A stretch of 64,000 bases of DNA from Rhodospirillales bacterium (GCA_965213765.1 OZ243926.1:3481627-3545626); one strand, 5' to 3'. Positions 36,883-56,727 are shown, counted from the stretch's first letter. Numbers and translations are program-made. Notes: generated from the letters alone by a model not told the origin.

Positions 36883-37511
36883 ATCACGTGGGTCCAGATT
36901 ATCCCGGCGGCGAGCGCCACCAGGATCAGCCCGGTGATCACTGAAATCCCCTTGGCGACCGACGGTGCCGCCAGCCAGCGGCGCATCCGCTCGGCGGCGG
37001 CCACCAGCGCCGTCTGCCAGACGATGTTGGCGGCGATGTAGGCGGCGCCGAGGACCGCGAGCTGGGCCGCTATATTGCCCTTCTCGACCACCACGAAGCC
37101 CGGCATCAGGGCCAGGAACAGCAGGATGACCTTGGGGTTGAAGACATTGCTCATCAGCGCGTCCCGCCACGCCTTGTGGATGCCGACCGGGGGACCGTCG
37201 CCGGTCAGCCCCAATCCGCTGCCGCCGGCACGCAGGGCCTGGTAACCAAGGAACGCGATGTAGGCGGCGCCGGCGATGGCGACGCCTTTGAACAGCACCG
37301 GCGAGGCGGCGACGATGACCGATAGCCCCGCCGCCGCGGCGACCGTGTGGATGGCGAGGCCGAGCTGGACGCCGGCCATGGTGGCCATGCCGATCCGCCC
37401 GCCGGACGTCATGGTGTAGCGGATGATCAGCACCGTGTCGGGCCCCGGCGAGATGACGATGGCCGAGGCGGTGATGAGAAACGCGATCAAAATGGCGGGA
37501 TCGACAGGCAT
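36879..37511 (-). CDS. LysE-family amino-acid exporter
   Basis: ORF-track 36879..37580 trimmed to the ATG at 37511 (MPVDPAILIAFLITASAIVISPGPDT...NPKVILLF). Confidence 0.8.
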   Translation of the reverse strand: MPVDPAILIAFLITASAIVISPGPDTVLIIRYTMTSGGRIGMATMAGVQLGLAIHTVAAAAGLSVIVAASPVLFKGVAIAGAAYIAFLGYQALRAGGSGLGLTGDGPPVGIHKAWRDALMSNVFNPKVILLFLALMPGFVVVEKGNIAAQLAVLGAAYIAANIVWQTALVAAAERMRRWLAAPSVAKGISVITGLILVALAAGIIWTHVI

Positions 37512-37603: not shown

Positions 37604-38743
37604 ATGGCCGCCAGAAACAAACCCCCGTACCGTGCCGATCATGTGGGATCGCTGCTGCGCCCCGATGCGCTGTTGATCTCGCGCAACAAGTGGCACGATG
37701 GGGAAATCAGCCTCGACCTGCTGCGCGAACACGAAGACGCCTGCATCAAGGAAGCGGTCAAGTTGCAGGAGGATGTGGGTTTGACGGCCGTCACCGACGG
37801 CGAGTACCGGCGTGCCAGCTTCCACGTCGATTTCATCCAGAAGGTCATCAACATCGACGCGCCGTGGGATTTCGAACGGGCGGTGTCGGTCTCCGATGAA
37901 AACAAGGAGCATGAAGCCAGGGATGAAGCCAAGGCGACCCCCTTCGTGCCCAAGGTGGTCGGCAAGATGGCGCTGCCCGAGGGCGGCATCGAGGTGGAAA
38001 ATTACAAGTTCACCTCGTCGCTCACCGATCATCCGGTGAAGGTCACCCTGCCGTCGCCGACGATGACCCATTTCCGGGGCGGCCGCGATGCCATCGACAA
38101 GGAGGCCTATCCCGAGCTCGGCACCTTCTTCGCCGACCTTTCCAGGCTTTACCGCGAGGAGTTGGCGCTCCTGGCCGAAGCCGGCTGCCGCTACGTCCAG
38201 TTCGACGACACCAATCTGGCTTTTCTCTGCGATGAGAAAATGCGACGGGGTGCGATCGACCGGGGCGAGGATCCGGACGAATTGCCGGCGACCTATGCGG
38301 CGCTGATCAATGATTCCATCCGCGACCGCCATCCCGACATGGCTGTCTGCATCCACCTCTGCCGGGGGAACGCCAAGAGCCAGTGGTTCGCCTCCGGCGG
38401 CTACGAACCGGTGGCCGAGAAGATGTTCAATCTCACCGACGTGGACGGATTTTTCCTCGAGTATGACGATGAGCGCTCGGGCGGCTTCGAGCCGCTGCGC
38501 TTCGTGCCCGAGGGCAAGCAGGTGGTGCTTGGCCTGGTGACCACCAAACGCTCGGATTTGGAGAGCAAGGACGAGTTGAAGGCGCGGATCGAGGAGGCGT
38601 CCAAATACGTCGATGCCGATCAGCTTTGCCTCAGCCCCCAGTGCGGGTTTTCCTCCAACGCCGTCGGCAATCTGGTGACGGTCAATGACGAAATCGCCAA
38701 GTTCCGGCTGATCATCGAGACCGCGGAGGAGGTCTGGGGCTGA
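37604..38743 (+). CDS. Single-domain MetE-like protein (cobalamin-independent methionine synthase II family), paralog a
   Basis: ORF-track 379 aa: YRADHVGSLLRP...VTDGEYRR. Putative Zn ligands IHLCRGN, LEYDDE, SPQCGFSS. Lacks the N-terminal half of canonical two-domain MetE. Confidence 0.8.
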   Translation: MAARNKPPYRADHVGSLLRPDALLISRNKWHDGEISLDLLREHEDACIKEAVKLQEDVGLTAVTDGEYRRASFHVDFIQKVINIDAPWDFERAVSVSDENKEHEARDEAKATPFVPKVVGKMALPEGGIEVENYKFTSSLTDHPVKVTLPSPTMTHFRGGRDAIDKEAYPELGTFFADLSRLYREELALLAEAGCRYVQFDDTNLAFLCDEKMRRGAIDRGEDPDELPATYAALINDSIRDRHPDMAVCIHLCRGNAKSQWFASGGYEPVAEKMFNLTDVDGFFLEYDDERSGGFEPLRFVPEGKQVVLGLVTTKRSDLESKDELKARIEEASKYVDADQLCLSPQCGFSSNAVGNLVTVNDEIAKFRLIIETAEEVWG

Positions 38744-38745
38744 AT

Positions 38746-38955
38746 CACCCTCACCCCAACCCTCTCTTCAAGGGAGAGGGATGCGAGCCGAATCCCGTCG
38801 CCCCCTTCAGGGGGAGAGGGTTAGGGTGAGGGGGGCCTCCGTGTCCGCCCGGTCTCCAGAGGAAACCGGATTCGCATGGCGGTTCCGCGACGCCGAAGCG
38901 GCCTTTGGCTGCGAAGGCCGGAAGGGGGGGGGAGCCGGAGCGGCGCGCTTCGACA
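38746..38955. repeat. GAGGG-hairpin mosaic intergenic repeat (element D)
   Basis: CCCTCACCCCAACCCTCTC...GGGGAGAGGGTTAGGGTGAGGGG long hairpin, plus module CGCCGAAGCGGCCTTTGGCTGCGAAGGCCGGAAGGGGGG. Both are shared (second module inverted) with 61868-62030. Fills the gap between convergent genes. Confidence 0.6.
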
Positions 38956-40311
38956 CTAGGCGGCTAACGTCAGCCCCTTCAAAATCTTTCGACCCGAGCG
39001 GGCGAGGAGGGCCTTCTTCTCCTCGAGCCTGCGGTATTTGAGCTTGCCGTTCGCCTTCATCACCCGGCCGGCGACGAGGACCGTGTCGACGTTGGAGCCG
39101 TTGGCGTGGAAGACAACGCTCTCGACCGGGTCATGCACCGGGAACATGTTCAGATCGTTGCCGTTGATCAAAATAATGTCGGCCTGCTTGCCGGGTTTGA
39201 GCGAGCCGACCCGCTTGTCGATGCCCAGCGACTTGGCCGCATCGATGGTCGCCCAGCGGAGCGCCTCGATCGGCTTGATGGAGAGGGTCTGCGCCGGCGC
39301 CTTGGTGCGCTTGGCGGTCGCCCGGTTGTCGATGTTGCGCTGGCTTTGCAGCGTCATTCGCATGACGGTGAACATGTCGCCGGAGATGTTGCTCTCCACA
39401 TCGACGCCCACCGAGAGCAGCCCGCCGTAGTCGCGCACCCGCCCGGTGAGCGGCGCGCCGTGGCCCATCTGCAGTTCGACCTCGGGCGTCACGGTGACCG
39501 ATGCGCCGGTATCCAGGATCAGTTTGAGCTCGGCGTCGGACAGGTAAACCCCGTGAACCAGGTTGTGCCGCTTGTCCAGAAGTCCCGCCTTGGCGAGCTT
39601 CCCGTACCCGTCCTTGTTCATCCGGTTCGGTGCGCCCCAGACATGGGCGCTGACCAGCAGGTTGAACTCCTTGGCGAGCTCGAAGTCATGCTTGGTCACT
39701 TCCCAGGTGGAAAAATCGGGGCCGAGCACCGCCATCCCCAAGGTGATCAGCTGATCGTCCGAGGCGAAGGGGCCTTTCCGCAAGCGCTCGATCTCGGATC
39801 GGGGGTGCGGGATATGGGTATATGGCGTCTGGTTCTTCTCGGCGTCCGGCTTGGGCGAGCCATGACCGAACACCGCCCGGATGCCTGATTCCCGCAAGCC
39901 CTCGATGGCCGCGTCGGTGTGCCCGGGGGTGGCGTTGTTGTGGCACCAATCGAAGATGGTCGTCGCGCCGTTGCCGATCTGATTGAGCGCCCCCACCAGA
40001 TTGCCGAGATAGGTGTCGTTGGCGGTGTAGCGGGGCGCGATGGCGGCGTGCATATGATGGAGGTATTCAGGGATCGACCAGTTGCCGGCAACCCCCCGGA
40101 TGCCCGTCTGCCAGGTATGCAGGTGCGCGTTGACGAAGCCCGGCATGGCGATCATGCCTGCGGCATCGATGACCTTGGCTCCGGGCGACCGGACGGTCCC
40201 GCCGATCTTCTCGATCTTGTCGCCGTTGATCAGGATATCGCCCTTGGCGAGGTTGTTGATGCCGCGGTCCATGGAAATGACGGCCGCACCCTTGATCAAC
40301 GTCTTGGACAT
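38956..40311 (-). CDS. Amidohydrolase-superfamily enzyme (TRZ/ATZ / nucleobase-deaminase-like)
   Basis: ORF-track 451 aa: MPGFVNAHLHTWQT (metal-binding HxH), later HGV and D motifs. Confidence 0.8.
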   Translation of the reverse strand: MSKTLIKGAAVISMDRGINNLAKGDILINGDKIEKIGGTVRSPGAKVIDAAGMIAMPGFVNAHLHTWQTGIRGVAGNWSIPEYLHHMHAAIAPRYTANDTYLGNLVGALNQIGNGATTIFDWCHNNATPGHTDAAIEGLRESGIRAVFGHGSPKPDAEKNQTPYTHIPHPRSEIERLRKGPFASDDQLITLGMAVLGPDFSTWEVTKHDFELAKEFNLLVSAHVWGAPNRMNKDGYGKLAKAGLLDKRHNLVHGVYLSDAELKLILDTGASVTVTPEVELQMGHGAPLTGRVRDYGGLLSVGVDVESNISGDMFTVMRMTLQSQRNIDNRATAKRTKAPAQTLSIKPIEALRWATIDAAKSLGIDKRVGSLKPGKQADIILINGNDLNMFPVHDPVESVVFHANGSNVDTVLVAGRVMKANGKLKYRRLEEKKALLARSGRKILKGLTLAA

Positions 40312-40435
40312 AACCCGGCGCTCCCTGAAATTCGTTGGTTATCATCTAGGATTGATGTTGGCGGCAGCGTTGGGCTACCCTTGCAGCCAACAAATCACGC
40401 GCCCGCAGGGAGGGCAAGTACGAAGGGAGAACGTC

Positions 40436-40918
40436 ATGCCGGACTCGGTCTTGAATCTGAATTTCCTGTCCCACGGGACACTCGAATCCCGCGATCTGGA
40501 TAAGATCCGTGAGTTTTACGAGAAGTTCCTGGGGCTCGAGGTGATCCGGACCAGCAACATTTCGCTGCTCATCAGGCTGGGCGGACCCAACACCATTGCC
40601 GTCGTCCAAAACGCCAAGAAGCCGGACATGCCGTTCCTCAATCACAACGGCCTCGACGTGGAGACCCGGGAAGAGGTGGATGCGGCCTATGAGTTGACGG
40701 TCCGGCATCAGGAGGAGTGGGGCATTTCACAGCTCCGCAAGCCCAGGCTGCAGCACGGCACCTACTCGTTCTTCTTCAAGGACATGGACGACAATTGGTG
40801 GGAAATCCTCACCAATCCCAAGGATGGGTACTCCTGGCTGTTCGAGAAGGGTGATCAGAAAGGCCGCGGCCATCTGGACGACGAATTCGACCGCCCGGGA
40901 ATGAGCGCCGCCGAGTAG
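40436..40918 (+). CDS. VOC (glyoxalase/dioxygenase) family protein
   Basis: ORF-track 40082..40918 trimmed to the ATG at 40436 (MPDSVLNLNFLSHGTLESRDLDKIREFYEKFLGLEV...SFFFKDMDDNWWEI). GGGAGAA lies upstream. Confidence 0.55.
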   Translation: MPDSVLNLNFLSHGTLESRDLDKIREFYEKFLGLEVIRTSNISLLIRLGGPNTIAVVQNAKKPDMPFLNHNGLDVETREEVDAAYELTVRHQEEWGISQLRKPRLQHGTYSFFFKDMDDNWWEILTNPKDGYSWLFEKGDQKGRGHLDDEFDRPGMSAAE

Positions 40919-40921
40919 CCG

Positions 40922-42889
40922 TCAGAGCCAGACCGTCGACAGGATCGGGAACATGATCAGGATGATGGTGACGAACAACATCATGATCACGTAGGGGAAG
41001 GCGCCGGCGAAGATCTGATTGAGCGTCACCGTCGCGTCTTCGATGGTACTTCGCACCACATAGACGGCGATACCGAAGGGCGGCGTCAGCAATCCCATCT
41101 CGACCGCGATCACGGTGACGATCCCGAACCAAATCAGGTCGCCGCCGAAGGCGCTGACGATGGGCAGCACGATGGGCAGCAGGATCAGCATCATCGAGAT
41201 GGAATCCAGGAACATCCCGAAAATGATCACCAGGATCACGTAAAGGACGAGGAACCCGGCGAATCCGAGATTTGCCCCGCCGATGATCTCGCCGAGGGAC
41301 TGGGGAAAGCCGCTGAGCGCCAGCATCCGGCCATAGATGTTGGCCGCCAGGATCAGGAACAGAACGCTGACCGTGGTGTGGCCGGTCTCGACCAGCACGT
41401 TCCAAAGCTTCCGCCAGGTGAGCCGGCGCTTGAGCAGCGAAATCACCAGCGCGCCGGCGGCGCCGACGGCGCCGGCCTCCACCGGCGTGAAAAGTCCGCC
41501 ATAGATGCCGCCCATGACGACGACGACCAGCAGCAGGATGGGCAGGATTTTCCAGAATGCGGTGGCGACGCTCTCGCCCTCTTCATCGTCGTCGTCCCTC
41601 GGCCGGCCGACGAAATCGGGGAAGAAGTGGGCCATGCCGACGATCGAAACCGCCATCACCAGCGCCAGGATGATGCCGGGGATGATGGCGGCCAGGAACA
41701 GCAACCCGACCGACTGCTCGGCAACAAAGGAATATACGATCAGCAGCAGGCTCGGCGGGATCAGCATCCCCAGCACCGACGACCCCGCCACCGTGCCTAC
41801 GGCGAATTTCCGGGTGTAGCCGTGCGCCACCATGTGGGGTGTGGCGACCTTGGTGAACACGGCCGCCGAGGCGATGGAGGAGCCGGTAATGGCCGCGAAA
41901 ATGGCGTTGGCGAATACCGTCGCGACACCAAGGCCGCCCTTGACCTTTCTGAGCAGCCACCGGGCGACGTCGAAGGTGTCCTTGCCGATATCGGATTCGC
42001 TGATCACCAGGCCCATGAGCACGAACAGCGGCACCACGCCGAGGAAGAAGTTCCTCAGGAATTCGTTGGAGGCCAGCTTGACCGTGTTGATGGCGACGTT
42101 GGGGCCGCCCAACATGACCCAGATGCCGAAGAAGCCGAGGATGATCAAGGCAATGCCGATATGGATGCCCGTGACGATCAGGACCAGCATGCCGACGATG
42201 GAAACGGCGCCGACGGTAACCTTGTCGAAGTCGGCTTCGAACATCCCCGCAATGGCGGCGATGACCGCGACGACGATCAGCAGGTGAAGCCAACCGATTT
42301 TTTCGTCCGGTTGTTCGGCGCGGTGCCTGCGATAGGCGGCGACGGCATCCGACAGGTGTTCGAGCGTCAGCACAAAATACTTGATGGCGACCATGATGGC
42401 GCCGATGAGAATGATCAGCCTGAGCGGCCAGACCAGGATGGTGAATTCGTTCTCGACGCCGAATTTCAGGCTCGGCCAGACCTCTTCCAGCTTATCGACC
42501 GTGCCGAAGGCGATTAGGCCGAAGACGAACACCCCGGCCGCCGAAAAGACGGTGTGAAAGAGAGCGCCGACCACCGGACGCTTCTCGGCCAGCGGGTCGA
42601 TGTACATCTCGGCGCGTGCAAACCGTCCCACATGCAGCGAGTGGGCGAGTTGCAGGAACACGGAGCCGATAAGCGTGTAGGCGACCAGTTCCGCGACCCC
42701 CCGGATCGGGGCGTTAAACCAGCCGCGCGCGATGACGTCGGCGCAGATGAGGAACATGATGCCGAACACCCAGATGGTGCCGGCACTGTTCATCCATGAG
42801 GCGATAAAGGTGACGAGATTGGCGAGGGGCCGGAGAAACCCCGGCGCCCCGCCGATCTCGGTCGTGATGGGACTCGGCGAGTCCGCCAA
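40922..42889 (-). CDS. TRAP transporter fused small/large permease (DctQ-DctM fusion)
   Basis: ORF-track 655 aa. N-terminal 4-TM DctQ-like region followed by a long DctM-like polytopic region. Confidence 0.9.
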   Translation of the reverse strand: MADSPSPITTEIGGAPGFLRPLANLVTFIASWMNSAGTIWVFGIMFLICADVIARGWFNAPIRGVAELVAYTLIGSVFLQLAHSLHVGRFARAEMYIDPLAEKRPVVGALFHTVFSAAGVFVFGLIAFGTVDKLEEVWPSLKFGVENEFTILVWPLRLIILIGAIMVAIKYFVLTLEHLSDAVAAYRRHRAEQPDEKIGWLHLLIVVAVIAAIAGMFEADFDKVTVGAVSIVGMLVLIVTGIHIGIALIILGFFGIWVMLGGPNVAINTVKLASNEFLRNFFLGVVPLFVLMGLVISESDIGKDTFDVARWLLRKVKGGLGVATVFANAIFAAITGSSIASAAVFTKVATPHMVAHGYTRKFAVGTVAGSSVLGMLIPPSLLLIVYSFVAEQSVGLLFLAAIIPGIILALVMAVSIVGMAHFFPDFVGRPRDDDDEEGESVATAFWKILPILLLVVVVMGGIYGGLFTPVEAGAVGAAGALVISLLKRRLTWRKLWNVLVETGHTTVSVLFLILAANIYGRMLALSGFPQSLGEIIGGANLGFAGFLVLYVILVIIFGMFLDSISMMLILLPIVLPIVSAFGGDLIWFGIVTVIAVEMGLLTPPFGIAVYVVRSTIEDATVTLNQIFAGAFPYVIMMLFVTIILIMFPILSTVWL

Positions 42890-42891
42890 GC

Positions 42892-43965
42892 CTACTTATC
42901 CCAGTCGCGCAGCGGTTTGACGCCTGCCTTGCGAACGCCGTCCATGTAGGCCTTGAGGACGGTTTTTGCGGGAAGGCCCTTGGCCTCCTGCGCCTTCACC
43001 CAGTCGCCGGCGAGGTCGGGAATCATGTTGGCCCATTTCTTTTGCTCTTCCATGGGCAGCTCGGAGACCTTGGCACCCGCCTCGGGCAGCAGCTTTTTGA
43101 AGCTGGCGTTGTGGAATCCGGCGGTCCGTTTGGCGACCAGTTCGCCGTAGCCCTTGCCGATGTCGTGGAACATCTCCTTCATTTCCTTCGGCAGGCCGTC
43201 ATAGGTGTTCTTGTTCATGGTCAGGGCGCCGGTCATTCCGCCGCCGAGACCGACCTTGATGATATAGGGAGCCGCCTCATGCAGTTTGAAGGGAAAAATA
43301 CCGGTGCCGGGTACGATGGCGCCGTCGGTGACGCCCGTCTTGATGCCGTTGTAGTAGACCGGCAGGCCGCCGTTGACGCCGATGGCGCCGGTGCCCTTGA
43401 GCCACGCCGCCGACGCGCCGGGGGCGTAGAACTTCTTGCCCTTCAGATCGGCGACCGACTTGATCGGGGTTTTCGAAATCAGGACATAGGAGTCGATGGC
43501 CTGCGGGCCGAGATAGACCTGGTTGTTCTTGATGAACGCATCCCGCATCGCCGGAATGTTGGTGTGCATGTCGTCTTGGATGCTGGCGGCGAGTTCCACA
43601 TCGTCGGTCACGAAGGGGATCGAGAAGGTGACGTTCTGCAGCGGCAGCTTGTTGGGCTCCCACAGCGTGCCGACCCAGCCGATATCGCCGAGGCCGTCGC
43701 CGATGCCCTCGAGGGTGTTCTTGAAATTATAGAGCGCGCCGGCATAGGCTTCGGTCCACTTGATGGTGTGGCCGAGCGCCTTGGCCCGCTTGGCCGACTC
43801 CGGGACCACGAAGTCCTGGAGGGTCTTGACCCACGGCACCACGGGGGGGTGCGAAGAGCTGGCCGTGAGTTTGAATTCTTTGGCATTAGATTGACCCGTG
43901 ACCGCAAGCGTCGTGAACGCGGCGGCGGCAACACCAAGGGCCAATCCCTTGAAGGATTTGGGCAT
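42892..43965 (-). CDS. TRAP transporter substrate-binding protein (DctP-type) with signal peptide
   Basis: ORF-track 357 aa: MPKSFKGLALGVAAAAFTTLAVTGQSNA. Ends 2 bp upstream of the permease gene. Confidence 0.85.
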   Translation of the reverse strand: MPKSFKGLALGVAAAAFTTLAVTGQSNAKEFKLTASSSHPPVVPWVKTLQDFVVPESAKRAKALGHTIKWTEAYAGALYNFKNTLEGIGDGLGDIGWVGTLWEPNKLPLQNVTFSIPFVTDDVELAASIQDDMHTNIPAMRDAFIKNNQVYLGPQAIDSYVLISKTPIKSVADLKGKKFYAPGASAAWLKGTGAIGVNGGLPVYYNGIKTGVTDGAIVPGTGIFPFKLHEAAPYIIKVGLGGGMTGALTMNKNTYDGLPKEMKEMFHDIGKGYGELVAKRTAGFHNASFKKLLPEAGAKVSELPMEEQKKWANMIPDLAGDWVKAQEAKGLPAKTVLKAYMDGVRKAGVKPLRDWDK

Positions 43966-44040
43966 TGAGTCTCTCCCTGTTCGTCCAGCAACTCGGTTAT
44001 CGACCGTGCCGCCGGCTGGACACTGCGGAAAACCGGCACG

Positions 44041-44088
44041 GCAATCGATTGCAGGGCGGATTGTCTGTCAGATCATTTCGATTTTCAA
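44041..44088 (-). promoter_or_regulatory. Candidate sigma70-type promoter plus 12-bp perfect palindrome upstream of TRAP genes
   Basis: Minus strand: TTGAAA (44088-44083), 17-nt spacer, GACAAT (44065-44060), then GCAATCGATTGC (44041-44052). Lies 76-123 nt upstream of the dctP-like ATG. Confidence 0.35.
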
Positions 44089-44150
44089 TAACATTCGTGC
44101 CGGGACAATATCCCCCGGCCGCGTTTGGATGAGGATGTGGGGGACATCGC

Positions 44151-44399
44151 TCAGCCGATCGCTTCGATAGCGTCAAAATGGCCGGCAGGGCCGGTGAATA
44201 AATAACCGAAACCGTCGTTCTCGCCGTGGGGAATGCCGGGGACGGCGACCATATCGCCCGGCAATCGGCTGCCATGATGGAGGTTTATGGTTTGGCCTCC
44301 GAGATTACCGTCGCGCAGGCCGGTGCCCATTCCACGCAGGAAATCGGCCGCAATTCCTTTGACCGGGCTTTTGACCGGCCTTTTGACAGGCGTGTTCAA
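44151..44399 (-). CDS. Hypothetical small protein (possible cupin-motif remnant); coding status uncertain
   Basis: ORF-track 82 aa, TTG start in a TTGA overlap with the upstream dehydrogenase stop. N-terminus PVKR/PVKS/PVKG is encoded by a 12-bp x3 tandem repeat. GDMVAVPGIPHGEN resembles cupin motif 2. Third-position GC is lower than in neighbouring genes. Confidence 0.25.
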   Translation of the reverse strand: MNTPVKRPVKSPVKGIAADFLRGMGTGLRDGNLGGQTINLHHGSRLPGDMVAVPGIPHGENDGFGYLFTGPAGHFDAIEAIG

Positions 44400-45274
44400 C
44401 GGGTTTTCTTCCAGTACCGGTAGGCGGCGGTGAAATCCTGATCCGCGCCCTCCGCCGCAAGGGCGTCCCGCCAGAGAGTCTGGATGAGAGTTGCGACGGG
44501 CGCGTCGACCCCGATCTGTTTGGCGAGGTCCCCGGCGATACCCACATCCTTGGCCATCAGGGACAGGCCGAACCCGGTTGCGAACGTTCCGGGCAGCACG
44601 TGATCCTTGATCGGGTGTTCGGTGTTGAAGTTTCGGCCGCTGGAGACGTTGATGATGTCGATCATGGTGGCCGGATCGAGGCCGAACTTCCCGCCCACCA
44701 GCATGGCTTCGGCGGCGGCGGTGAATCCGGCAGCGGCGACGTAGTTGTTCAGCGCCTTCATGGCGTGGCCGCTGCCCAGCGGGCCGGTGCGGAACAAATT
44801 CCCGCCCATGGCCTCCAGGACCGGCGTCGCTCTTCCGATGGCATCCTCGTTCTCGCCGCCGATCATGATGGTGAGCGTGCCGGCCTCGGCGCCGGATACG
44901 CCGCCCGACACCGGGGCGTCGATCAGAACGATGTCATGGGCCGCCAGTTCGGCACCCAGCTCCCGGGTGCCGACGGGCTCGGATGAGCTCATGTCCACCA
45001 CCACGGTGCCCGGCCTGAGATGGCCGGCCAGTCCGCCGTCCATTTCCATCAGGACCGCGCGAACGTCCGCTCCGGTGGGCAGCATGGTGACGATAATCTC
45101 GCGTTCCCCGCCGACCTCGCCGATATTGGCGGCGGCGGCGGCGCCGTGCTCGTCGACAAACGAAGCCGCCCGCGCCGCATCCAGGTCGAACACGGTGACC
45201 GCGTGACCTGCCTTGGCCACGTGGGCGGCCATGGGCCGGCCCATATTACCAATGCCGATAAACCCGACCTTCAA
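44396..45274 (-). CDS. NAD(P)-dependent oxidoreductase, 3-hydroxyisobutyrate dehydrogenase family
   Basis: ORF-track 292 aa: MKVGFIGIGNMGRPMAAHVAKAGH...GSGHAMKALNN. Confidence 0.85.
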   Translation of the reverse strand: MKVGFIGIGNMGRPMAAHVAKAGHAVTVFDLDAARAASFVDEHGAAAAANIGEVGGEREIIVTMLPTGADVRAVLMEMDGGLAGHLRPGTVVVDMSSSEPVGTRELGAELAAHDIVLIDAPVSGGVSGAEAGTLTIMIGGENEDAIGRATPVLEAMGGNLFRTGPLGSGHAMKALNNYVAAAGFTAAAEAMLVGGKFGLDPATMIDIINVSSGRNFNTEHPIKDHVLPGTFATGFGLSLMAKDVGIAGDLAKQIGVDAPVATLIQTLWRDALAAEGADQDFTAAYRYWKKTR

Positions 45275-45297
45275 GGGATCATTCTCCGCGTGGCGAT

Positions 45298-46431
45298 CTA
45301 GACCCCGCCCCAGATCTCGTTGGCGGTGGTGACCACCAGCTCCAGCTTCCGGCGCTGGTCATCCATGGTGATCTTGTTGCCTTCCTCGGTGGATGAGAAT
45401 CCGCACTGGGGCGCGATGCCCAGCTGATCGATGTCGGCGTACCTGGCCGCTTCGTCGAAATTCCGTTTGAGGCCGTCCACGGGTTCGAGCTCCGGCGTCT
45501 TGGTGGTGATGAAGCCGGGCAGCACCCGCTTATCGCCTTTGGGCAGCAGGCGGAGCGGCTCCAGCCCGCCGGCGCGGTCGGAGTCGTATTCCATGAAGAA
45601 GACGTCGGCGTCCGTTTTGTTGAAGATGGCGTCCGCCGCCGGATCGTAGGCGCCCTCGGCGACCCAGGTGGATTGGAAATTGCCGCGGCAGAGATGCATG
45701 CCGATGGTCATGTCGTCGGGCCGGTCCTTGATCGCCTCGTGCATCATCCGGGCGTACATTTCGATCAGTTCATCCGGATCCTCGCCGCCGGCCTCTTTTT
45801 CCGCCCGGATCTTCGGATCGCACAGATAGGCGAAGAAGATGTCGTCCATCTGCAGATAGCGGCATCCGGCTTGGTAGAAGGCGTCCACCGCCTGGGCGTA
45901 CGTCTTGGCGATGTCGGCGAACAAGACGTCCCGGTCCGCATATTCGGGCGGCTGGATATCCGATTTGAGCAATCGGAAATGACAGGCGCTGGGGCCGGGG
46001 ATGGAGATTTTCGGCGTCTTCGCCGCCACCGAGGCCAGGTAGGTGAAATGCCCGATCATCGGATGATCGGCGGGGAACGACAGCGGTCCCGAGATCACCG
46101 GGACAACCGCCAAGGCAAAGGTGCCGACGGCCCCCTCCGAGGAACGTTCCGCCAGATCGAGCCCATTGAGCCCGGCCATGAAATCGTAATGCCAGTAGGC
46201 GCGCCGGAACTCGCCGTCGGTGACCACCGGCAGGCCGAGTTCCTCCTGGAGCTTGACCGCCTCGATAATTTCGGCGTCCTCGGCTTCCTTGAGGTCGGCG
46301 GGTGTTTCGCCCTGGCCGAACCGGGCCAGCGCTCCTTGTTCAAACAGTTGCTCCCGCGCCCGCCTGACCCGTTCCGGCCGAAGCAGGCTGCCCACGTGAT
46401 CGGCCCGCGGCCGGATTTTCCCGTTCGTCAT
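45298..46431 (-). CDS. Single-domain MetE-like protein, paralog b
   Basis: ORF-track 45298..47463 trimmed to the ATG at 46431 (MTNGKIRPRADHVGSLLRP...). MHLCRGN, MEYDSD, APQCGFSS. The upstream part of the track ORF is antisense to the neighbouring gene. Confidence 0.8.
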   Translation of the reverse strand: MTNGKIRPRADHVGSLLRPERVRRAREQLFEQGALARFGQGETPADLKEAEDAEIIEAVKLQEELGLPVVTDGEFRRAYWHYDFMAGLNGLDLAERSSEGAVGTFALAVVPVISGPLSFPADHPMIGHFTYLASVAAKTPKISIPGPSACHFRLLKSDIQPPEYADRDVLFADIAKTYAQAVDAFYQAGCRYLQMDDIFFAYLCDPKIRAEKEAGGEDPDELIEMYARMMHEAIKDRPDDMTIGMHLCRGNFQSTWVAEGAYDPAADAIFNKTDADVFFMEYDSDRAGGLEPLRLLPKGDKRVLPGFITTKTPELEPVDGLKRNFDEAARYADIDQLGIAPQCGFSSTEEGNKITMDDQRRKLELVVTTANEIWGGV

Positions 46432-46567
46432 GTTGCGTGCCCCCTGGTGATTGGCGAATTTCAGTATAGGAACGCGCCCGCCGCCGCCAAACAGGTTTTG
46501 ATGTCCGGGATTGGGACGGTGCCCACGGCCCGTGCGATCCCGGTTTTCGCCTGGGTTCGGTGTGCCG

Positions 46568-46612
46568 GAGCAGTTTCCGGTCAAATGGATCAATCGGGCC
46601 GGAAACTGCTCT
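46568..46612. repeat. TAGAGC-type palindromic element (copy P2) in divergent promoter region
   Basis: GGAGCAGTTTCCGG-N17-CCGGAAACTGCTCT. Arms are identical to copy P1 (24366-24413) except at the outermost bases. Confidence 0.65.
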
Positions 46613-46653
46613 GGCATCGCCGCAACAATCACGTTTCGAACAGGGACTTCACT

Positions 46654-47835
46654 ATGCTCACCGCCACCAAAGGCATCGTCATGCCCACCACCGTCATCGG
46701 CTCCCTGCCGCGGCCGGGCTGGTTTACCGAAAACCTGGCAGGGCGGACGTTTCTTCACGCCATGCTCGATAGCCGGTTCCGCGAACAGTACACGGACGCG
46801 GTTTCGGTCTATTTGCGGGAACAGGAGACGGCGGGACTCGATATCTGCACCGATGGTGACGCGCATTACGACGAGGAGGTCGGCGGCCAAAGCTGGACCA
46901 GCTATCCGCTCTACCACATGGACGGGTTCGACCGGCAAAACCCGGCGCCGGCCATCATGAAGACCGGCGGCGTCGGCTTCCCCATGGGCCACATCCTCCA
47001 CGACTACCTCGAAGCCCGGATCATGCCCAAGCTGGTGGGGCCGGTAGGGCGCGGCGATCTGCAATACACCGCCATGTGGAAGACGGCCCAGCGCTTGACC
47101 GGCAAGCCGGTGAAGTTCGGCACCATCACCCCGGAGCTGTTGGCGGCGGCGGTCGACGACGAATATTACCCGGACCCGGTCGAGCGCATTCACGCGCTGA
47201 GCGCGGCGATGAACGAAGAGCTGACCGAACTGGCGGACGCCGGCTGTCCGGTGATCCAGATGGAAGAACCGCAAATCCACATGATCCCGTCCTGGGGCAA
47301 GGTGTTCGGCAAACTGGACATGGCGGAGATGGTCGAGGTGTTCAACAACACCGTGAGGGGCCTCCGCGACAAGGCCGAAGTGTGGTGCCACACCTGTTGG
47401 GGCAACCCGTCGCAGCAGCGGATGTTCAAGGAAATCCAGAGCTACGCGCCGGCCCTCGAACATCTCAACCGTGTGGATGCGGATGTGATCACCTTCGAGT
47501 CATGCTCCTCGGGGCGCATGGACCTGGAGGCCATCGGCCGGCACATCACCGAAAAGAAAGTCGCCATCGGGGTCATCGATCACCATTCCCTTCAGGTGGA
47601 GAAGCCCGAGGACGTGGCCGACCCTATTCGCGAGGCGCTTCGGCATATTCCCGCCGAACGCCTTGTGATCGCGTCGGACTGCGGCATGGGCCGGGAAGGG
47701 ATGGCGCGGCGCCACGCGCGCTACAAGATGGTCTCCCTGGTACTCGGCACCAACATCGTGAAGAAGGAACTCGGCCTGCCGGAGGCTGACTGCCTCGCCG
47801 CCGACGGCCGTTATTCGCTGGTCAAGACGGAATAG
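46654..47835 (+). CDS. MetE-like / CIMS-like (beta-alpha)8 protein, divergent paralog c
   Basis: ORF-track 45673..47835 trimmed to the ATG at 46654 (MLTATKGIVMPTTVIGSLPRPGWF...). CHTCWGN, TFESCSSG, ASDCGMG. Confidence 0.75.
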   Translation: MLTATKGIVMPTTVIGSLPRPGWFTENLAGRTFLHAMLDSRFREQYTDAVSVYLREQETAGLDICTDGDAHYDEEVGGQSWTSYPLYHMDGFDRQNPAPAIMKTGGVGFPMGHILHDYLEARIMPKLVGPVGRGDLQYTAMWKTAQRLTGKPVKFGTITPELLAAAVDDEYYPDPVERIHALSAAMNEELTELADAGCPVIQMEEPQIHMIPSWGKVFGKLDMAEMVEVFNNTVRGLRDKAEVWCHTCWGNPSQQRMFKEIQSYAPALEHLNRVDADVITFESCSSGRMDLEAIGRHITEKKVAIGVIDHHSLQVEKPEDVADPIREALRHIPAERLVIASDCGMGREGMARRHARYKMVSLVLGTNIVKKELGLPEADCLAADGRYSLVKTE

Positions 47836-47932
47836 CGCCGCGACGTTGTTCATGCGGGCCGTCGCGGTTAATCTGCCGGGAGGACGGCTCTTTCGAACGC
47901 GACAAATGAACCCGGTAAAGGGGGGCGGGAAC

Positions 47933-48790
47933 ATGCTGGACGAGGCCCAAGGCTATACCACCCAGGACATGGAGTATCTGCGGTTCGGCGACCGCGGGAT
48001 CGGTCTCAGATTATTCACACCCGTTGGGACGGGCCCCTTTCCCCTGGTCGTCGATGTTCATGGCGGGGCCTGGAACATGAGCGATTTCAACAGCTGCCGG
48101 GAGCGGGACGAGGTGCTGGCCGGCGCCGGTCTCGCCGTGGCGGCCATCGATTTCCGCCATGGACCGGACAAGTACCCCTCGTCCCTGGCCGATATCAACT
48201 ACGCGATCCGCTGGCTGAAATCGAAGGCGGCGGAATTCGACATCGATGCCGGACGGGTCGGGATTTCCGGTCAGTCGAGCGGCGGACATCTCGCCATGTT
48301 GGCCGCCATGCGGCCCGCCGATCCCCGCTATGCCGGGCTTCCCGTCGAGAGCGCCTCCCCGGAGATCGATGCGGCCGTCTCCTGCGCCGGCCTGTCGTGG
48401 CCGGTGATCAACCCCCTGTCCCGATACCGGCATGCCGTCCGGACCCGGGAAAGCGGCGAAAATGCGGACTGGGTCGGAAAGCTGCCGGAGCTTCACCACA
48501 TTTATTGGGGGACCGAAGAGGTGATGGAGGAAGGCAACCCGATGCTCGCCCTGGAGCGCGGCGAGAACGTTGAGACGCCGCCCGCCCTTTGGGTTCAAGG
48601 GCGGCCGGATATCGTTCACGACTACCGGGACCTGTCATCCGGCGCCACGGTGAACGAGCCGGAACGGTTTGCCGCGAACTACCGCGCTGCGGGGGGCGAG
48701 ATCGAGGTCGTATACGTCGAGCAGGCGCACCGCGGAACCGAAGTGTCCTGGAATCCGCTGGCCGCGTTCTTTCTCAAGCACCTTGGGTGA
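47933..48790 (+). CDS. Alpha/beta hydrolase (esterase/lipase-like)
   Basis: ORF-track 47846..48790 trimmed to the ATG at 47933 (AAAGGGGGG upstream). Oxyanion VHGGAW and nucleophile elbow GQSSGGHLA. Confidence 0.8.
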   Translation: MLDEAQGYTTQDMEYLRFGDRGIGLRLFTPVGTGPFPLVVDVHGGAWNMSDFNSCRERDEVLAGAGLAVAAIDFRHGPDKYPSSLADINYAIRWLKSKAAEFDIDAGRVGISGQSSGGHLAMLAAMRPADPRYAGLPVESASPEIDAAVSCAGLSWPVINPLSRYRHAVRTRESGENADWVGKLPELHHIYWGTEEVMEEGNPMLALERGENVETPPALWVQGRPDIVHDYRDLSSGATVNEPERFAANYRAAGGEIEVVYVEQAHRGTEVSWNPLAAFFLKHLG

Positions 48791-48836
48791 GCACCGTGGT
48801 ATTGAACCGGTCGCTTGAGCGCATGGGCTCGACGAG

Positions 48837-49979
48837 ATGGTGAAGGGTCCGTTCCGCGCCGATCACGTCGGGAGCCTGCTGCGCCCGCCGGAGCTTCTTG
48901 AGGCCCGCGAGCAATTCAAGAACGGAGAGATGGATGCCGGCGCCCTTCGCGAGGTCGAGGACCGGCTGATCCGCCGTGCGGTAAAGTTGGAGGAAGAGAC
49001 CGGCATCCAGCCGGTGACCGACGGCGATTACCGCCGCGATTCGTGGTCCAACGATTTCCTGGATGCCATCGAAGGCGTGAAGAGCGCCTCGCCGCCGGCC
49101 AAGCGCTCCGACGATCACCACACGACGGAGGTCGGCGGCGTCGTGAAGACCTTCAAGCTGCCCGCGCCGACCACGCACGGCAGGCTGGGCTGGCCGGCGG
49201 GCGGCATTCAGCGCCGTTCGTTCAACTTCCTCAAGGGCGAAACCTCCCGCACGCCCAAGGTCACCATGCCGTCGGTGAGCATGCTGCATTTTCGGGGCGG
49301 CCGCGGCGGCGTTTCCGAGGATGCCTATCCGGACATGGAGGAGTTTTTCAAGGATGCCTCCGGGATTTGGCGCGCGGAAATTCTCGACCTCGCGGCGCAA
49401 GGCTGCCGCTACGTGCAGCTTGACGACACCAATCTTGCTTACCTCTGCGACGAGCGGCTGCGGGAAAACGTGCGCGAGCTGGGCGAGGACCCGGATGATC
49501 TCCCCCATCTCTACGCCCGGCTGATCAACGATGCCATCGCCGGCCGGCCGGAGGATATGGCCGTTGCCATTCACCTTTGCCGGGGCAACTCCTTCAGCCG
49601 GGGCCACGCCGAAGGCGGATACGAACATGTGGCCGAAGCCATCTTCAACGAGGTCAAGGTGGACGGGTTCTTCCTCGAATATGACGACGAGCGCTCGGGC
49701 GGGTTCGAGCCGTTGCGCTTCGTTCCCAAAGGATCAGGCGGGCCCAGGATCGTCCTCGGCATCGTCACGTCCAAGTTCGGCGAGTTGGAGGACAAGGATG
49801 GCCTCAAACGCCGCCTCGACGAAGCCGCCCGATACATGCCCCCGGAACAGATGTGCCTCTCCCCTCAATGCGGGTTTGCCAGCCACACCGGCGGCAACCT
49901 GCTGAGCGAGGAACAGCAATGGGCCAAGCTCCGCCATTGCGTCGAGGTGGCCGAAGAGGTTTGGGGCACCGCGATTTAA
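48837..49979 (+). CDS. Single-domain MetE-like protein, paralog d
   Basis: ORF-track 380 aa: FRADHVGSLLRP...VTDGDYRR, IHLCRGN, LEYDDE, SPQCGFAS. Shares the 22-aa block DGFFLEYDDERSGGFEPLRFVP with paralog a. Confidence 0.8.
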   Translation: MVKGPFRADHVGSLLRPPELLEAREQFKNGEMDAGALREVEDRLIRRAVKLEEETGIQPVTDGDYRRDSWSNDFLDAIEGVKSASPPAKRSDDHHTTEVGGVVKTFKLPAPTTHGRLGWPAGGIQRRSFNFLKGETSRTPKVTMPSVSMLHFRGGRGGVSEDAYPDMEEFFKDASGIWRAEILDLAAQGCRYVQLDDTNLAYLCDERLRENVRELGEDPDDLPHLYARLINDAIAGRPEDMAVAIHLCRGNSFSRGHAEGGYEHVAEAIFNEVKVDGFFLEYDDERSGGFEPLRFVPKGSGGPRIVLGIVTSKFGELEDKDGLKRRLDEAARYMPPEQMCLSPQCGFASHTGGNLLSEEQQWAKLRHCVEVAEEVWGTAI

Positions 49980-50057
49980 GCTTTTTCCCGATTTGATTGC
50001 CGGGCCGGCAGCACCCGCTCAAATCGGTAAGCTGGAAAAAATGTCTGGAGGGCCAAC

Positions 50058-50678
50058 ATGGAGTTCTTCGCCTGGGGGGTGAACCATTCGGGAGTCGCCG
50101 GCAAGCGCTCGGCGATTATTCGGCAACACTGGGACTTCATCGACCGCTACAAGGACAGGCTGATCGCGCGGGGACCGGTGCTCGATCCGCGCGACCCGTC
50201 GCGGGTCACCGGCTCCATCCATATCGCGGAGCTCGATGACTGGCAGGAGGCCAAGCGCTTCGTCTACGAGGAGCCGTTCCACAAAGCCGGTTTGTTCGAA
50301 AACGTGCTCATCCGGCGTTTCGAGCTGGAACTCGGCCGCACTCAGTTTGAATTCGAGAGCGCGGGCGATCTGCCCCGTTTCTTCATCTATTGTTCCCGGG
50401 CCCGCGGCAACGAGACCGGCCCGGAGCGGGTGGCCGATGAATACGACGCCTATTGCGCCGGGTTCGACGCCAATTTCCTGTGCCGCGGCGCGCTGGTCGA
50501 CGACCGGGGCGGCCGGGCCGGCAGCATTTATTTGATGGAGATGGCCGACACGGACGCCGCCGCCGAATTCCTGGCGGGTGAGCCCTACCTCAAGGCCGGG
50601 CTCTACGGCGACGTGCAGGTCCATCGGTGGACTCCGGGCGGACCCGAAAACCTCAACCGACGCGGCGAGCTTGCCTGA
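50058..50678 (+). CDS. Tandem (double) YciI-like domain protein
   Basis: ORF-track 206 aa. Two about 100-aa halves end ...EEPFHKAGLFENVLIRRFE and ...GEPYLKAGLYGDVQVHRW. Confidence 0.6.
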   Translation: MEFFAWGVNHSGVAGKRSAIIRQHWDFIDRYKDRLIARGPVLDPRDPSRVTGSIHIAELDDWQEAKRFVYEEPFHKAGLFENVLIRRFELELGRTQFEFESAGDLPRFFIYCSRARGNETGPERVADEYDAYCAGFDANFLCRGALVDDRGGRAGSIYLMEMADTDAAAEFLAGEPYLKAGLYGDVQVHRWTPGGPENLNRRGELA

Positions 50679-50707
50679 GGGCCCGTCACCCCGATAACCT
50701 GCCCCCC

Positions 50708-52003
50708 ATGCCGCCGCCGCTCGTCGACCTGCCCGCCGGATTTCCGCCTCTCGATGTCAGGGTCTGCACGCCCGAGCGGCGCGAGCCCGGCTACATGATT
50801 CTCTCTCTCGGCAGGGGCACCCGCGCCGTCCAGCAGAGATCCGACTTCGAAGCCCTGGTAGCCATCGATCGGGAGGGCCGCCCGGTTTGGTGCTGGCAGT
50901 CGGCCTCGTCGGTCATGGATGTGAAGCGCACGCCCCGCAATACGTTGCTGGTGGTAACCACGGACGGCTGCATCCAGGAGATCGACGCGGGCGGGGCGAC
51001 GTTGCGAAAGTGGAGCACGCCGGGTGCGTCGCCCAGCCTGGCGGGTAATGAAATCCCGGTCGACACCCTCTATTTCCATCATGCGGTTCGCGAGTTGCCC
51101 AACGGAAATCTGGCGGCGCTCTCAATTTCCACCGGCGAGTTCGATGACTACCCCCTCAGCTTGATGGACCCCGGTGCCGGCCGGGGAAAACGCAAACTGG
51201 TGGCCGATGTGCTGGTCGAATTTACCCCTGAAGGCGATGTCGTCCACGCCCACGATTTTTTCGACATTCTCGATTCGCACCGGACCGCCTACGGACTCGA
51301 TACCCCGTTCTGGACCATTTGCGGCGTGGTGCCCGACGGCGCCGATCTGACCCATGCCAACGGTCTCGTCCACGACCCCGTCGACGACAGCTTCATCACC
51401 ACCGTCCGCCACCAGGATTGTGTGATCAAGATCGACCGGGCGACCGGCGCGCTGAAATGGATCCTGGGCACGCCGGAGGGCTGGACCGGGGACTGGGCGG
51501 ACAAGGTGCTCAAGCCGGTGGGCGAAACGTCGTGGCACTGGCATTCCCACGATCCGAGCATCATGGCCGACGGCTCGATCCTGCTGTTCGACAACGGTGA
51601 CAGCGGCGCCTTTCCGCCGGCGCCGCCCCTCAACCTCGATGACTGCGTTTCACGCGCCATCGCCTACCGCGTGGACGAGGCGGCGGGCACGGTGGAGCAG
51701 GTGTGGTCTTTCGGCGGTCCGGAACACGGGACGCCGTACTCCATGTATATCAGCGGCGCCCACGAACTGCCGGCGACCGGCAATGTCTTCGTTACCTTCG
51801 GCGGTATCATCCTGAACCGCGACGGTGAGCGGGTCCACCTGCCGCCGGCGGGCCACGGCTCGGCGGAAGTCTATGAGGTCACCCGCGCGGACGATTCGGA
51901 AATTCTGTTCCACGCCGAGATCAGCAACCGCCACACCGACGCGGAGGTCGGCTGGGGGATCTTCCGCGCCGAATGGGTGCCGGACGACTTCTTCGGCGGC
52001 TAG
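50708..52003 (+). CDS. Arylsulfotransferase (ASST)-like beta-propeller protein, no signal peptide
   Basis: ORF-track 50627..52003 trimmed to the ATG at 50708. FHHAVRELPNGN, LTHANGLVHDP and HWHSHDPS segments recall ASST-family proteins. The stop TAG lies within the CTAG terminus of MITE copy C. Confidence 0.55.
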   Translation: MPPPLVDLPAGFPPLDVRVCTPERREPGYMILSLGRGTRAVQQRSDFEALVAIDREGRPVWCWQSASSVMDVKRTPRNTLLVVTTDGCIQEIDAGGATLRKWSTPGASPSLAGNEIPVDTLYFHHAVRELPNGNLAALSISTGEFDDYPLSLMDPGAGRGKRKLVADVLVEFTPEGDVVHAHDFFDILDSHRTAYGLDTPFWTICGVVPDGADLTHANGLVHDPVDDSFITTVRHQDCVIKIDRATGALKWILGTPEGWTGDWADKVLKPVGETSWHWHSHDPSIMADGSILLFDNGDSGAFPPAPPLNLDDCVSRAIAYRVDEAAGTVEQVWSFGGPEHGTPYSMYISGAHELPATGNVFVTFGGIILNRDGERVHLPPAGHGSAEVYEVTRADDSEILFHAEISNRHTDAEVGWGIFRAEWVPDDFFGG

Positions 52004-52145
52004 GGTCGGGACTCAATTGAGCCGCCATTCGATTGTTGCGGCGATGAAGACGGCGCGGCACAGGGTCCCTCGCCCCCGTCAGGGGGAGAGAGGCAGGGTG
52101 AGAGCGCGCAAAAAGGAGACTCCCCTAATGGAATCCGTACCCTAG
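52000..52145. repeat. MITE-like repeat, copy C (minimal 146-bp form, inverted relative to A and B)
   Basis: Bounded by CTAG at both ends. Ends CTAGGGTCGGGACTCAATTGAGCCGCCAT and TCCCCTAATGGAATCCGTACCCTAG form imperfect terminal inverted repeats. Core hairpin CCCTCGCCCCCGTCAGGGGGAGAG. Confidence 0.7.
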
Positions 52146-54028: not shown

Positions 54029-54029
54029 C

Positions 54030-55692: not shown

Positions 55693-55747
55693 CGGGCGCG
55701 GATATACGCCGGATCCGGACTGTCGTCGGATCCCGGTTTAGCCCTGT

Positions 55748-56329: not shown

Positions 56330-56418
56330 CTCTTTCCCCTCCGGTGAGTGCTGCCGACCGGAAGGGTGCCGTGATCCCGGCAAGAGATCAACAGTGTCGG
56401 ATCGTGGTAAGCTCCAGG

Positions 56419-56715: not shown

Positions 56716-56727
56716 GCGCCGGCCGGA

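Follow-up and report, generated by a model that had tools for sequence, protein, structure and literature searches.

Four single-domain MetE-like genes beside a TRAP transporter in a marine Rhodospirillales genome: two protein families and a tentative role in methyl harvesting

What might four half-size relatives of cobalamin-independent methionine synthase (MetE) do within 12 kb of one another, beside a TRAP transporter, on a bacterial chromosome? The question is raised by a 64,000-nucleotide stretch of DNA from a Rhodospirillales bacterium (GCA_965213765.1 OZ243926.1:3481627-3545626; 'the window' is this whole stretch), in which four MetE-like genes, designated a to d, encode proteins of 377–393 aa. 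The window is chromosomal DNA of a marine Rhodospirillales (GC ~63%), with a housekeeping block (prs, L25, pth, ychF) immediately to the left of the cluster; the closest public relatives are Rhodospirillales metagenome-assembled genomes (MAGs). A first interpretation made from the DNA alone (the sequence-only reading) had proposed an uptake-plus-alkyl/methyl-transfer pathway for an organic acid. Our own answer, which we hold tentatively, as possible rather than probable, is that a–d may be Zn-dependent homocysteine-type S-methyltransferases that take methyl groups off imported carboxylates, probably aromatic or heterocyclic ones, and pass them to methionine and the C1 pool.

Half-size relatives of MetE are very common in environmental genomes, where they are routinely auto-annotated as methyl-folate methionine synthases; to our knowledge, only a few half-size families (MesA–D and EaCoMT) are experimentally supported. 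The locus described here unites two further half-size families.

Family placement and active sites of the MetE-like proteins

The recomputed coordinates and translations of a–d agree with those of the sequence-only reading, as does its claim that all four are single-domain proteins: each matches Pfam PF01717 (Meth_synt_2) above the gathering cutoff of 21 bits (a, 64; b, 59; c, 93; d, 32), and a significant N-terminal Meth_synt_1 domain was found by Pfam in none of them, c alone giving a sub-threshold match (17.9 vs 27 bits). What did not survive is the treatment of the four as one set of paralogs. On NCBIfam model NF005085 (PRK06520; cutoff 313 bits), a, b, and d are clear members (scores in Table 1) and c, with 36 bits, is not; indeed, no NCBIfam methionine-synthase model gives c a score that reaches its cutoff. 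The model for canonical MetE (TIGR01371; cutoff 930 bits) gives 31–72 bits for a–c and lists no match for d. Pairwise identities are 43–53% among a, b, and d and only 19–21% between c and these three. The a protein aligns end to end with the Listeria structure PDB 1YPX (E 4.7e-85); the closest solved structure to c is PDB 3RPD, Shewanella MesD (E 3e-25).

We then placed the proteins in a neighbor-joining tree with E. coli MetE, Acinetobacter MesD, Xanthobacter EaCoMT, and the YxjG-like proteins of Listeria and Klebsiella, the kind of phylogeny that the sequence-only reading had called for. All of a, b, and d lie within the YxjG/1YPX clade (bootstrap 100). The c protein and its relatives form a clade of their own (bootstrap 100), whose sister group is MesD plus EaCoMT (bootstrap 82). 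None of the four lies inside a clade of characterized methionine synthases. Neither the NCBIfam scores nor the tree identifies any of a–d as MetE, MesD, or EaCoMT, and we assign the cluster to two families, that is, YxjG/YxjH-1YPX (a, b, and d) and a separate c clade. MesD had been a candidate identity for c and was rejected: on NF006589 (PRK09121), which we took by inference to be the NCBIfam model for MesD, c reaches 127 bits where the cutoff is 392, and MesX (DUF1852) was found neither in the window nor in 83 c-family loci by tblastn with Acinetobacter MesX as the query.

Within the tree, the nearest neighbors of a, b, and d are their respective orthologs in other genomes (72%, 58–68%, and 69–73% identity), not one another. 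An identical 22-aa block, DGFFLEYDDERSGGFEPLRFVP, occurs in a and d, although the encoding DNA differs at 7 of 66 nucleotides, all synonymous, as the sequence-only reading had stated; over the whole genes, 42–44% of the identical residues are encoded by different codons. Because their closest relatives are orthologs elsewhere and not the paralogs in this cluster, with the differing codons as further support, we take a, b, and d to be old paralogs; the earlier conclusion that a and d are old duplicates holds.

In a multiple alignment, the His-x-Cys/Glu/Cys motifs that had been noticed in all four proteins coincide with the residues that bind Zn in E. coli MetE, MesD, and EaCoMT, and so are homologous positions; these ligands are invariant across 20 c-family sequences. 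In MetE, Ser433, Glu484, and Asp599 bind the carboxyl and amino groups of homocysteine (PMC7857596). The residues at these positions are Ser, Glu, and Asp in a and b; Ser, Asp, and Asp in d; Ser, Asp, and Glu in c; and Asn, Arg, and Asp in EaCoMT. Because the Ser and two carboxylates are kept in a–d, all four are predicted to be built to hold an amino-acid thiol, although the geometry of the substrate site may differ in c. A ColabFold model of c, computed from a shallow alignment of closely related sequences, has a pLDDT of 56 and is unreliable over the N-terminal 125 residues; the strands that carry the ligands are modeled with confidence, and Foldseek ranks 3RPD first, followed by MetE structures, so that the model is evidence only for the fold and for where the ligand strands lie.

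A conserved TRAP-amidohydrolase module in a strain-variable island

The transporter is complete by Pfam, with a DctP solute-binding protein and a fused DctQ/DctM membrane subunit, and the PRK08204-type amidohydrolase is the last gene of the same module. To compare neighborhoods we collected loci from other genomes (designated L plus a number). DctP orthologs (66–84% identity) are followed by DctQM and the PRK08204 amidohydrolase in nine of the nine related loci that reach far enough downstream, and c lies directly upstream of this DctP-DctQM-amidohydrolase module in five loci (L007, L034, L103, L105, and L106). Conservation as a module is limited to DctP-DctQM-amidohydrolase, with c as an added member in some lineages.

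The whole arrangement recurs only in L004, a Rhodospirillales MAG from a 95%-identical sister species. There, the island proteins are 87–95% identical to those of the window (DNA ~91–93%) with the exception of DctP, which is 62% identical (window 42892-43965 vs L004:4098-5171) between flanking genes of 88–95% identity, its ends kept and its middle diverged; this suggests that the ligand-binding part may have been swapped by allelic replacement. L004 also has two additional genes between dctP and the HIBADH-like gene that encode a gentisate-1,2-dioxygenase-like bicupin and a luciferase-like monooxygenase. In a conspecific metagenome contig (L096, LXNI01000317.1; ~98% nucleotide identity), the gene order is the same except that c and the HIBADH-like gene are absent; nothing else is lost. 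The deletion of c is clean (46624-47796 in window coordinates) and leaves the last 39 nt of the gene, and a dispersed ~100-nt repeat stands in place of the HIBADH-like gene (window 44148-45220). The island is, then, a strain-variable mosaic with no single fixed pathway. The conservation that the sequence-only reading had asked to be tested is real for the TRAP-amidohydrolase module, with c in some lineages, and for the whole arrangement in L004; it does not extend to the 14-kb island as one conserved pathway. Likewise, the proposed coupling of uptake to methyl transfer finds support in the loci in which c precedes DctP-DctQM-amidohydrolase and loses it from the solitary d and b orthologs described below and from the loss of c and the HIBADH-like gene in L096.

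Table 1. Positions, strands, and family assignments of features in the window.
Feature	Coordinates	Strand	Basis and remarks
IS-type DDE transposase	3914-4990		DDE_Tnp_1 + DUF772
LysE/RhtB-type amino-acid exporter	36879-37511	-	Divergent from a; Pfam LysE E 2.5e-28
a, single-domain MetE-like Zn enzyme (predicted)	37604-38743	+	YxjG/YxjH-1YPX family; NF005085 413 bits; monocistronic
Amidohydrolase, PRK08204 subfamily, TRZ/ATZ-deaminase superfamily	38956-40311	-	NF006056 550 bits vs cutoff 391
VOC/glyoxalase-fold protein	40436-40918	+	PF00903 E 3.4e-7; 99% conserved in L096
Fused DctQ-DctM TRAP membrane subunit, 655 aa	40922-42889	-	PF04290 + PF06808
DctP TRAP solute-binding protein	42892-43965	-	PF03480
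Non-coding region upstream of dctP	43966-44395	.	Holds the supposed small ORF; junction of the two extra genes of the sister species
HIBADH-family beta-hydroxyacid dehydrogenase	44396-45274	-	PF03446 + PF14833; 23 bp downstream of b
b, MetE-like	45298-46431	-	YxjG/YxjH-1YPX family; NF005085 410 bits
Divergent promoter region between b and c	46432-46653	.	222 bp; includes palindromic insertion 46565-46614
c, MetE-like, separate clade	46654-47835	+	PF01717 E 3.6e-26
Alpha/beta-hydrolase esterase, BD-FAE/hormone-sensitive-lipase-like	47933-48790	+	PF20434 E 4.6e-24, PF07859; start most likely 47933, by alignment with L096
d, MetE-like	48837-49979	+	YxjG/YxjH-1YPX family; NF005085 422 bits
Tandem double YciI-domain protein	50058-50678	+	PF03795, two stretches
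ASST-like beta-propeller protein	50708-52003	+	PF05935 E 4e-62; start most likely 50708
Dispersed repeat copy, ~100 nt	51999-52145	.	Right edge of cluster; self-BLAST
EamA-family transporter	52337-53224	+	PF00892

The joint absence of c and the HIBADH-like gene from L096 hints that the two work together, and c is associated with HIBADH-like genes in two different gene arrangements. This association is one reason to consider that a–d are EaCoMT-like alkyl (non-methyl) transferases, or thioether lyases, that would join a thiol to an epoxide or other electrophile, or split an adduct of this kind, in the breakdown of the imported acid, with the HIBADH-like dehydrogenase oxidizing the resulting hydroxy-thioether; another is that c is about as near to the EaCoMTs encoded on Xanthobacter and Nocardioides plasmids (29–32% identity) as to MesD and shares with EaCoMT a small insertion after the DG motif. 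We consider this explanation very unlikely, however: the Asn and Arg of EaCoMT are absent from a–d; no coenzyme M, alkene monooxygenase, or epoxide-related genes are found among the annotated genes of the window; and the C1 neighbors in relatives (below) indicate methyl chemistry.

The gene losses also bear on the notion that the cluster is a decaying remnant, with no working system, in a host-associated or streamlining lineage. It would explain why c and the HIBADH-like gene are lost in L096, why the gentisate-dioxygenase-like and luciferase-like genes of L004 are lost in the window, and why dispersed repeats and palindromic insertions occur at junctions; but every reading frame in the window is intact and high in third-position GC (GC3), the proteins are conserved in the sister species at the level given above, DctP excepted, and conserved blocks show far more synonymous than non-synonymous change. 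Decay is, in our view, highly improbable.

Most of the neighbors listed by the sequence-only reading (amidohydrolase, VOC protein, DctQM, DctP, HIBADH-like, esterase, YciI, and ASST-like) were recovered. The exception is its small ORF (43997-44275), which has no family match and lies within DNA upstream of dctP that is kept as non-coding in L004. The HIBADH-like protein scores below all NCBIfam equivalog cutoffs, the LysE-type protein matches the NCBIfam homoserine/threonine efflux subfamily below its cutoff, and inspection of the N-terminus of the ASST-like protein by eye reveals no evident signal peptide. The nearest PDB match to DctP (5I5P, E ~1e-15 to 3e-15) is too weak to assign a ligand to the transporter, and a literature search with the PDB codes did not confirm that the nearest DctP structures bind aromatic acids. 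Amino-acid/metabolite exporters of the LysE and EamA types flank a and many c genes; an EamA gene is near c in eight loci, including the window, and is directly downstream of c in L003, L023, L025, and L026.

As the sequence-only reading had stated, the cluster has no evident regulator: no transcription-factor domains occur among the genes scanned (36.8–57.5 kb), and Rfam at gathering thresholds gives no match in the whole window, so no SAM or B12 riboswitch; when the threshold is relaxed to E 5 over 36.8–52.4 kb, all that appears is three eukaryotic miRNA/snoRNA matches at chance level. The length and position of the divergent spacer between b and c were reproduced, and a sigma70-like site for b is located at 46490-46463. 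The spacer contains one of two copies of a 46-nt near-perfect palindrome (CCGGAGCAGTTTCCGG...CCGGAAACTGCTCTGG; 46565-46614 and 24361-24411). It was considered as an operator and rejected, given its absence from the orthologous spacer of L004 and its second copy at 24.4 kb; because it has no counterpart in the sister species, we regard it as a small mobile REP/MITE-like insertion and not as a conserved operator. The ~100-nt repeat family has copies at 3865-3912, 5128-5240, 5395-5445, 51999-52145, and 55235-55693, is tandemly reiterated at 55.2–55.7 kb, and lies next to the IS transposase as well as at the cluster's right-hand edge.

To the right of EamA, an enoyl-CoA hydratase and a family III (CaiB-type) CoA-transferase (window 53237-55238) are kept in L004 and L096; a similar CoA-transferase/hydratase pair is located ~6–8 kb upstream of a solitary b ortholog on a Roseinatronobacter plasmid, beside a TRAP system. 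Further to the right are a cupin protein and an iodothyronine-deiodinase/AhpC-like thioredoxin-fold protein (55748-57492) and a biopterin-dependent aromatic amino-acid hydroxylase (62031-62894); the cupin, deiodinase-like, and hydroxylase genes may belong to a wider aromatic/halogenated-compound theme.

Ortholog contexts and candidate functions

The c clade forms a single compact group: each of the top 120 database matches is at least 76% identical, and a scan of species-representative genomes found at least 565 relatives. The best 80 c relatives (68–95% identity) are all from uncultured MAGs of Alpha-, Beta-, and Gammaproteobacteria, and the clade spans Alpha- and Gammaproteobacterial MAGs at 68–83% identity; in a library clustered at 50%, the best full-length representative is 64% identical to c and the next are 49, 45, 42, and 36%. 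Many MAGs place c among NadE, CysS, and DAHP-synthase-like genes (read from translations), and c adjoins an a/b/d-type gene in six loci. Orthologs of d (67–73% identity) are abundant and solitary amid housekeeping genes (SMC, MutY, ATP-synthase). Those of b occur on Rhodovulum, Roseinatronobacter, and Hyphomicrobiales plasmids, solitary on the first two (Rhodobacterales), and one (61%) adjoins c in L013.

A Woeseiaceae MAG (L001:6244-11185) has two MetE-like genes, 77% and 43% identical to c, on either side of a TonB-dependent receptor, with a SnoaL-like gene after this set and a GcvT-family gene 7 kb away. A Hyphomicrobiaceae contig (L013:15209-18830) has a second c copy and three further, more distant MetE-like genes; seven MetE-like genes lie there within ~14 kb.

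A minority of c loci connect the two families to C1 metabolism. In L006, the a ortholog (72%) is in an operon of order C51-MTHFR-a, where C51 is a ~490-aa protein family and MTHFR is methylenetetrahydrofolate reductase, and c is followed by formate-tetrahydrofolate ligase (FTHFS). The order in L013 is c-b-C51-MTHFR-like; in L010, L023, and L027 an MTHFR-like gene is immediately upstream of c; and in L034 MetK and C51 are divergent from c-DctP-DctQM. MTHFR-type genes are associated with ~5 of 80 c loci (MTHFR-like genes at L027:9027-9968, L023:9029-9814, L010:3167-4018, and L013:14250-15212). C51 (L034:1501-2976, L006:16294-17709, L010:1623-3089, and L013:12723-14207) is 59–64% conserved, has no Pfam, NCBIfam, or PDB match, and is always found beside MetE-like genes of the c or a/b type and beside MTHFR-type genes; a VFDAGMGDG stretch in it, spotted by eye, resembles motif I of SAM-methyltransferases. 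The sequence-only reading had started from the premise that proteins lacking the N-terminal domain are unlikely to use methyl-folate in the canonical way; this premise is weakened, because c and a/b-type genes of relatives are operonic with MTHFR-type, FTHFS, and MetK genes.

The main rival explanation is that a–d are redundant B12-independent methionine synthases that use methyl-tetrahydrofolate (CH3-THF) or another endogenous donor, with their present context coincidental. The solitary d and b orthologs, the NadE-CysS-DAHP-synthase-like surroundings of c in many MAGs, the very high conservation of c, and the retained homocysteine-binding positions of a–d are as expected for such enzymes, as are operons of a/b-type genes and c with MTHFR-type genes near MetK, for which there is a parallel in metE-metF of Lactobacillus (PMC6004538). 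However, no SAM or B12 riboswitch or other Rfam match is near a–d; several independent lineages have c in one operon with the TRAP-amidohydrolase module; MetE-like genes recur beside ASST-like genes; four copies in 12 kb, one of them lost in a conspecific strain, are unusual for an essential biosynthesis; and the characterized core synthases do not use CH3-THF (PMC7857596). On balance we doubt this explanation while regarding it as the most serious competitor.

The ASST-like gene provides a separate line of context. Its orthologs (56–66% identity) are found in five unrelated contexts: in L118 and L120 the gene immediately before them is a MetE-like gene of a third kind, and in L117 and L121 VOC and Rieske/VanA_C oxygenase genes come immediately before them with a luciferase-like monooxygenase nearby, so that in four of the five a MetE-like gene or a Rieske/VanA_C oxygenase is directly upstream. 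Because each precedes the ASST-like gene, the MetE-like protein and the VanA-family oxygenase occupy the same position. The VanA family includes vanillate O-demethylase.

Together with the MTHFR-like neighbors, this shared position brings in a second rival, that c, and perhaps the MetE-like proteins beside ASST-like proteins, are demethylases that transfer a methyl group from an activated donor (an aryl methyl ether, a sulfonium, or an N-methyl heterocycle) to tetrahydrofolate, with an S6MTHFR-type enzyme and FTHFS then oxidizing the CH3-THF, as in the ligM-metF-ligH operon. In MAGs of Alpha- and Gammaproteobacteria, an S6MTHFR-like gene immediately precedes c, and in L006 FTHFS comes after c; the c-neighbor MTHFR-like protein matches S6MTHFR of Sphingobium SYK-6 (PDB 7XG9) with E 2e-43, vs 2e-6 for ordinary MTHFRs. 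S6MTHFR, a 'type 4' MTHFR, oxidizes CH3-THF, and enzymes of this type are described as partners of tetrahydrofolate-dependent demethylases (PMC11868366). Several observations point the other way: the Ser and acidic residues retained in a–d favor an amino-acid thiol as substrate; a–d lack a folate-binding N-terminal domain; the c-neighbor MTHFR keeps one of the three S6MTHFR signature residues (Arg78) and has His for Leu48 and Ala for Pro268, replacements that leave its predicted reaction direction uncertain; the association is confined to the ~5 of 80 loci and absent from the window; and no MetE-fold demethylase, O-demethylases included, is found in the searchable literature. This makes methyl transfer to tetrahydrofolate distinctly unlikely. 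A bolder form, in which the c clade and the MetE-like proteins upstream of ASST-like proteins would be new corrinoid-independent MetE-fold demethylases of imported aromatic or heterocyclic acids, methoxylated or methylated in some other way, with homocysteine or tetrahydrofolate as the acceptor, replacing VanA- or LigM-type enzymes, we also consider unlikely, if a little less so; if it were true, MetE-fold demethylases in relatives would feed an S6MTHFR-type CH3-THF oxidase and FTHFS.

We return to methyl harvesting with a thiol acceptor, which we tentatively prefer. Zn would activate the thiol group of homocysteine, or of an amino acid much like it, for attack on a methyl donor. The donor would be bound without a MetE-type N-terminal domain and would be something other than canonical methyl-folate-triglutamate. 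The locus would be an accessory methyl-stripping set because the MetE-like genes are gathered with genes for phenolic-type processing (esterase, YciI, ASST-like, and VOC) and with the TRAP importer-amidohydrolase module, to which the sister species adds gentisate-dioxygenase-like ring cleavage and a flavin monooxygenase; it would be strain-variable, without an obligatory linear pathway. Besides the family assignment and the retained residues, what speaks for this proposal is the C1 and methionine neighbors of relatives, with the S6MTHFR-like match among them, the methionine T-box of YxjH, the operons of c with the TRAP-amidohydrolase module, the MetE-like or VanA-type genes before ASST-like genes, the BD-FAE type of the esterase, and the exporters beside a and the c family.

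A number of points weigh against this proposal. MTHFR, FTHFS, MetK, and C51 are all absent from the window, and the MTHFR found beside c elsewhere has the two signature replacements just described. The aromatic-substrate idea is drawn from weak family matches and from neighbors in other genomes. Both c and the HIBADH-like gene are dispensable within the species (L096), and the whole island is kept in one near relative only. Orthologs of d and b elsewhere have no transporter or catabolic context, which fits plain methionine synthesis equally. The Asp in place of Glu484 in c and d and the Glu in place of Asp599 in c may indicate a thiol other than homocysteine. Finally, no demonstrated reaction for either family is found in the searchable literature. 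As for a specific substrate, homarine, trigonelline, or picolinate was suggested by the N-heterocycle-type amidohydrolase, a maleate-isomerase-family neighbor in L007, and the gentisate-like dioxygenase; it was rejected, as the enzymes of the homarine pathway known from the literature (homABCDER) are unrelated and no MetE-like gene takes part in it.

If methyl harvesting is true, the locus would represent a new route from demethylation of dissolved organic matter to methionine and C1 metabolism, and a widespread annotation would be corrected. The neighborhoods provide concrete partner candidates, that is, the TRAP-amidohydrolase module, the S6MTHFR-type oxidase, FTHFS, C51, and the ASST-like proteins.

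Comparison with known systems

The YxjG/YxjH proteins (PDB 1YPX; NF005085/NF004875) are the nearest known relatives of a, b, and d, which share with them full-length alignment, the Zn and homocysteine-binding positions, and a place in the tree with the Listeria and Klebsiella members. The Lactobacillus YxjH gene is under methionine T-box control, is cotranscribed with luxS, and is induced by methionine limitation (PMC6004538). The Firmicute genes have Met T-box/S-box control and are located beside luxS; in contrast, Rfam finds no riboswitch in the window, and here three diverged paralogs share one locus beside transport and hydrolase genes.

MesD of the MesD/MesX system (PDB 3RPD; PMC7857596) resembles c in having one barrel, the Zn ligands, and a Ser and two acidic residues at the substrate positions; the two are ~29% identical, and c differs in its extra conserved loops (residues ~70–125) and in the E-to-D/D-to-E swap. 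EaCoMT (Xanthobacter Py2 Xaut_4865) has the same fold and Zn site as c and the same short insertion after the DG motif, but its Asn and Arg replace the Ser and Asp that c keeps, and all four proteins have Ser and an acidic residue there. Canonical MetE (EC 2.1.1.14) has a homologous barrel with a Zn-ligand pattern identical to that of a–d; however, it is a ~750-aa two-barrel protein with Meth_synt_1, a barrel that a–d lack, and the identity is 19–26%.

The LigM-S6MTHFR-LigH system of Sphingobium SYK-6 (PMC11868366) has the same partners, S6MTHFR-like and FTHFS, that occur beside c in relatives; it differs in that LigM has the GcvT fold and c the MetE fold, in that two of the three S6MTHFR signature residues are replaced in the c neighbors, and in that the partner association is a feature of other genomes and not of this window. 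The homocysteine methyltransferases BHMT/Bmt and MmuM, which belong to the unrelated Pfam family S-methyl_trans, provide an analogy and not a case of shared membership. They are functional analogues of the role that we propose for a–d, in that they carry out Zn-thiolate methylation of homocysteine from exogenous methylated compounds and so connect demethylation with the synthesis of methionine (PMC12366255).

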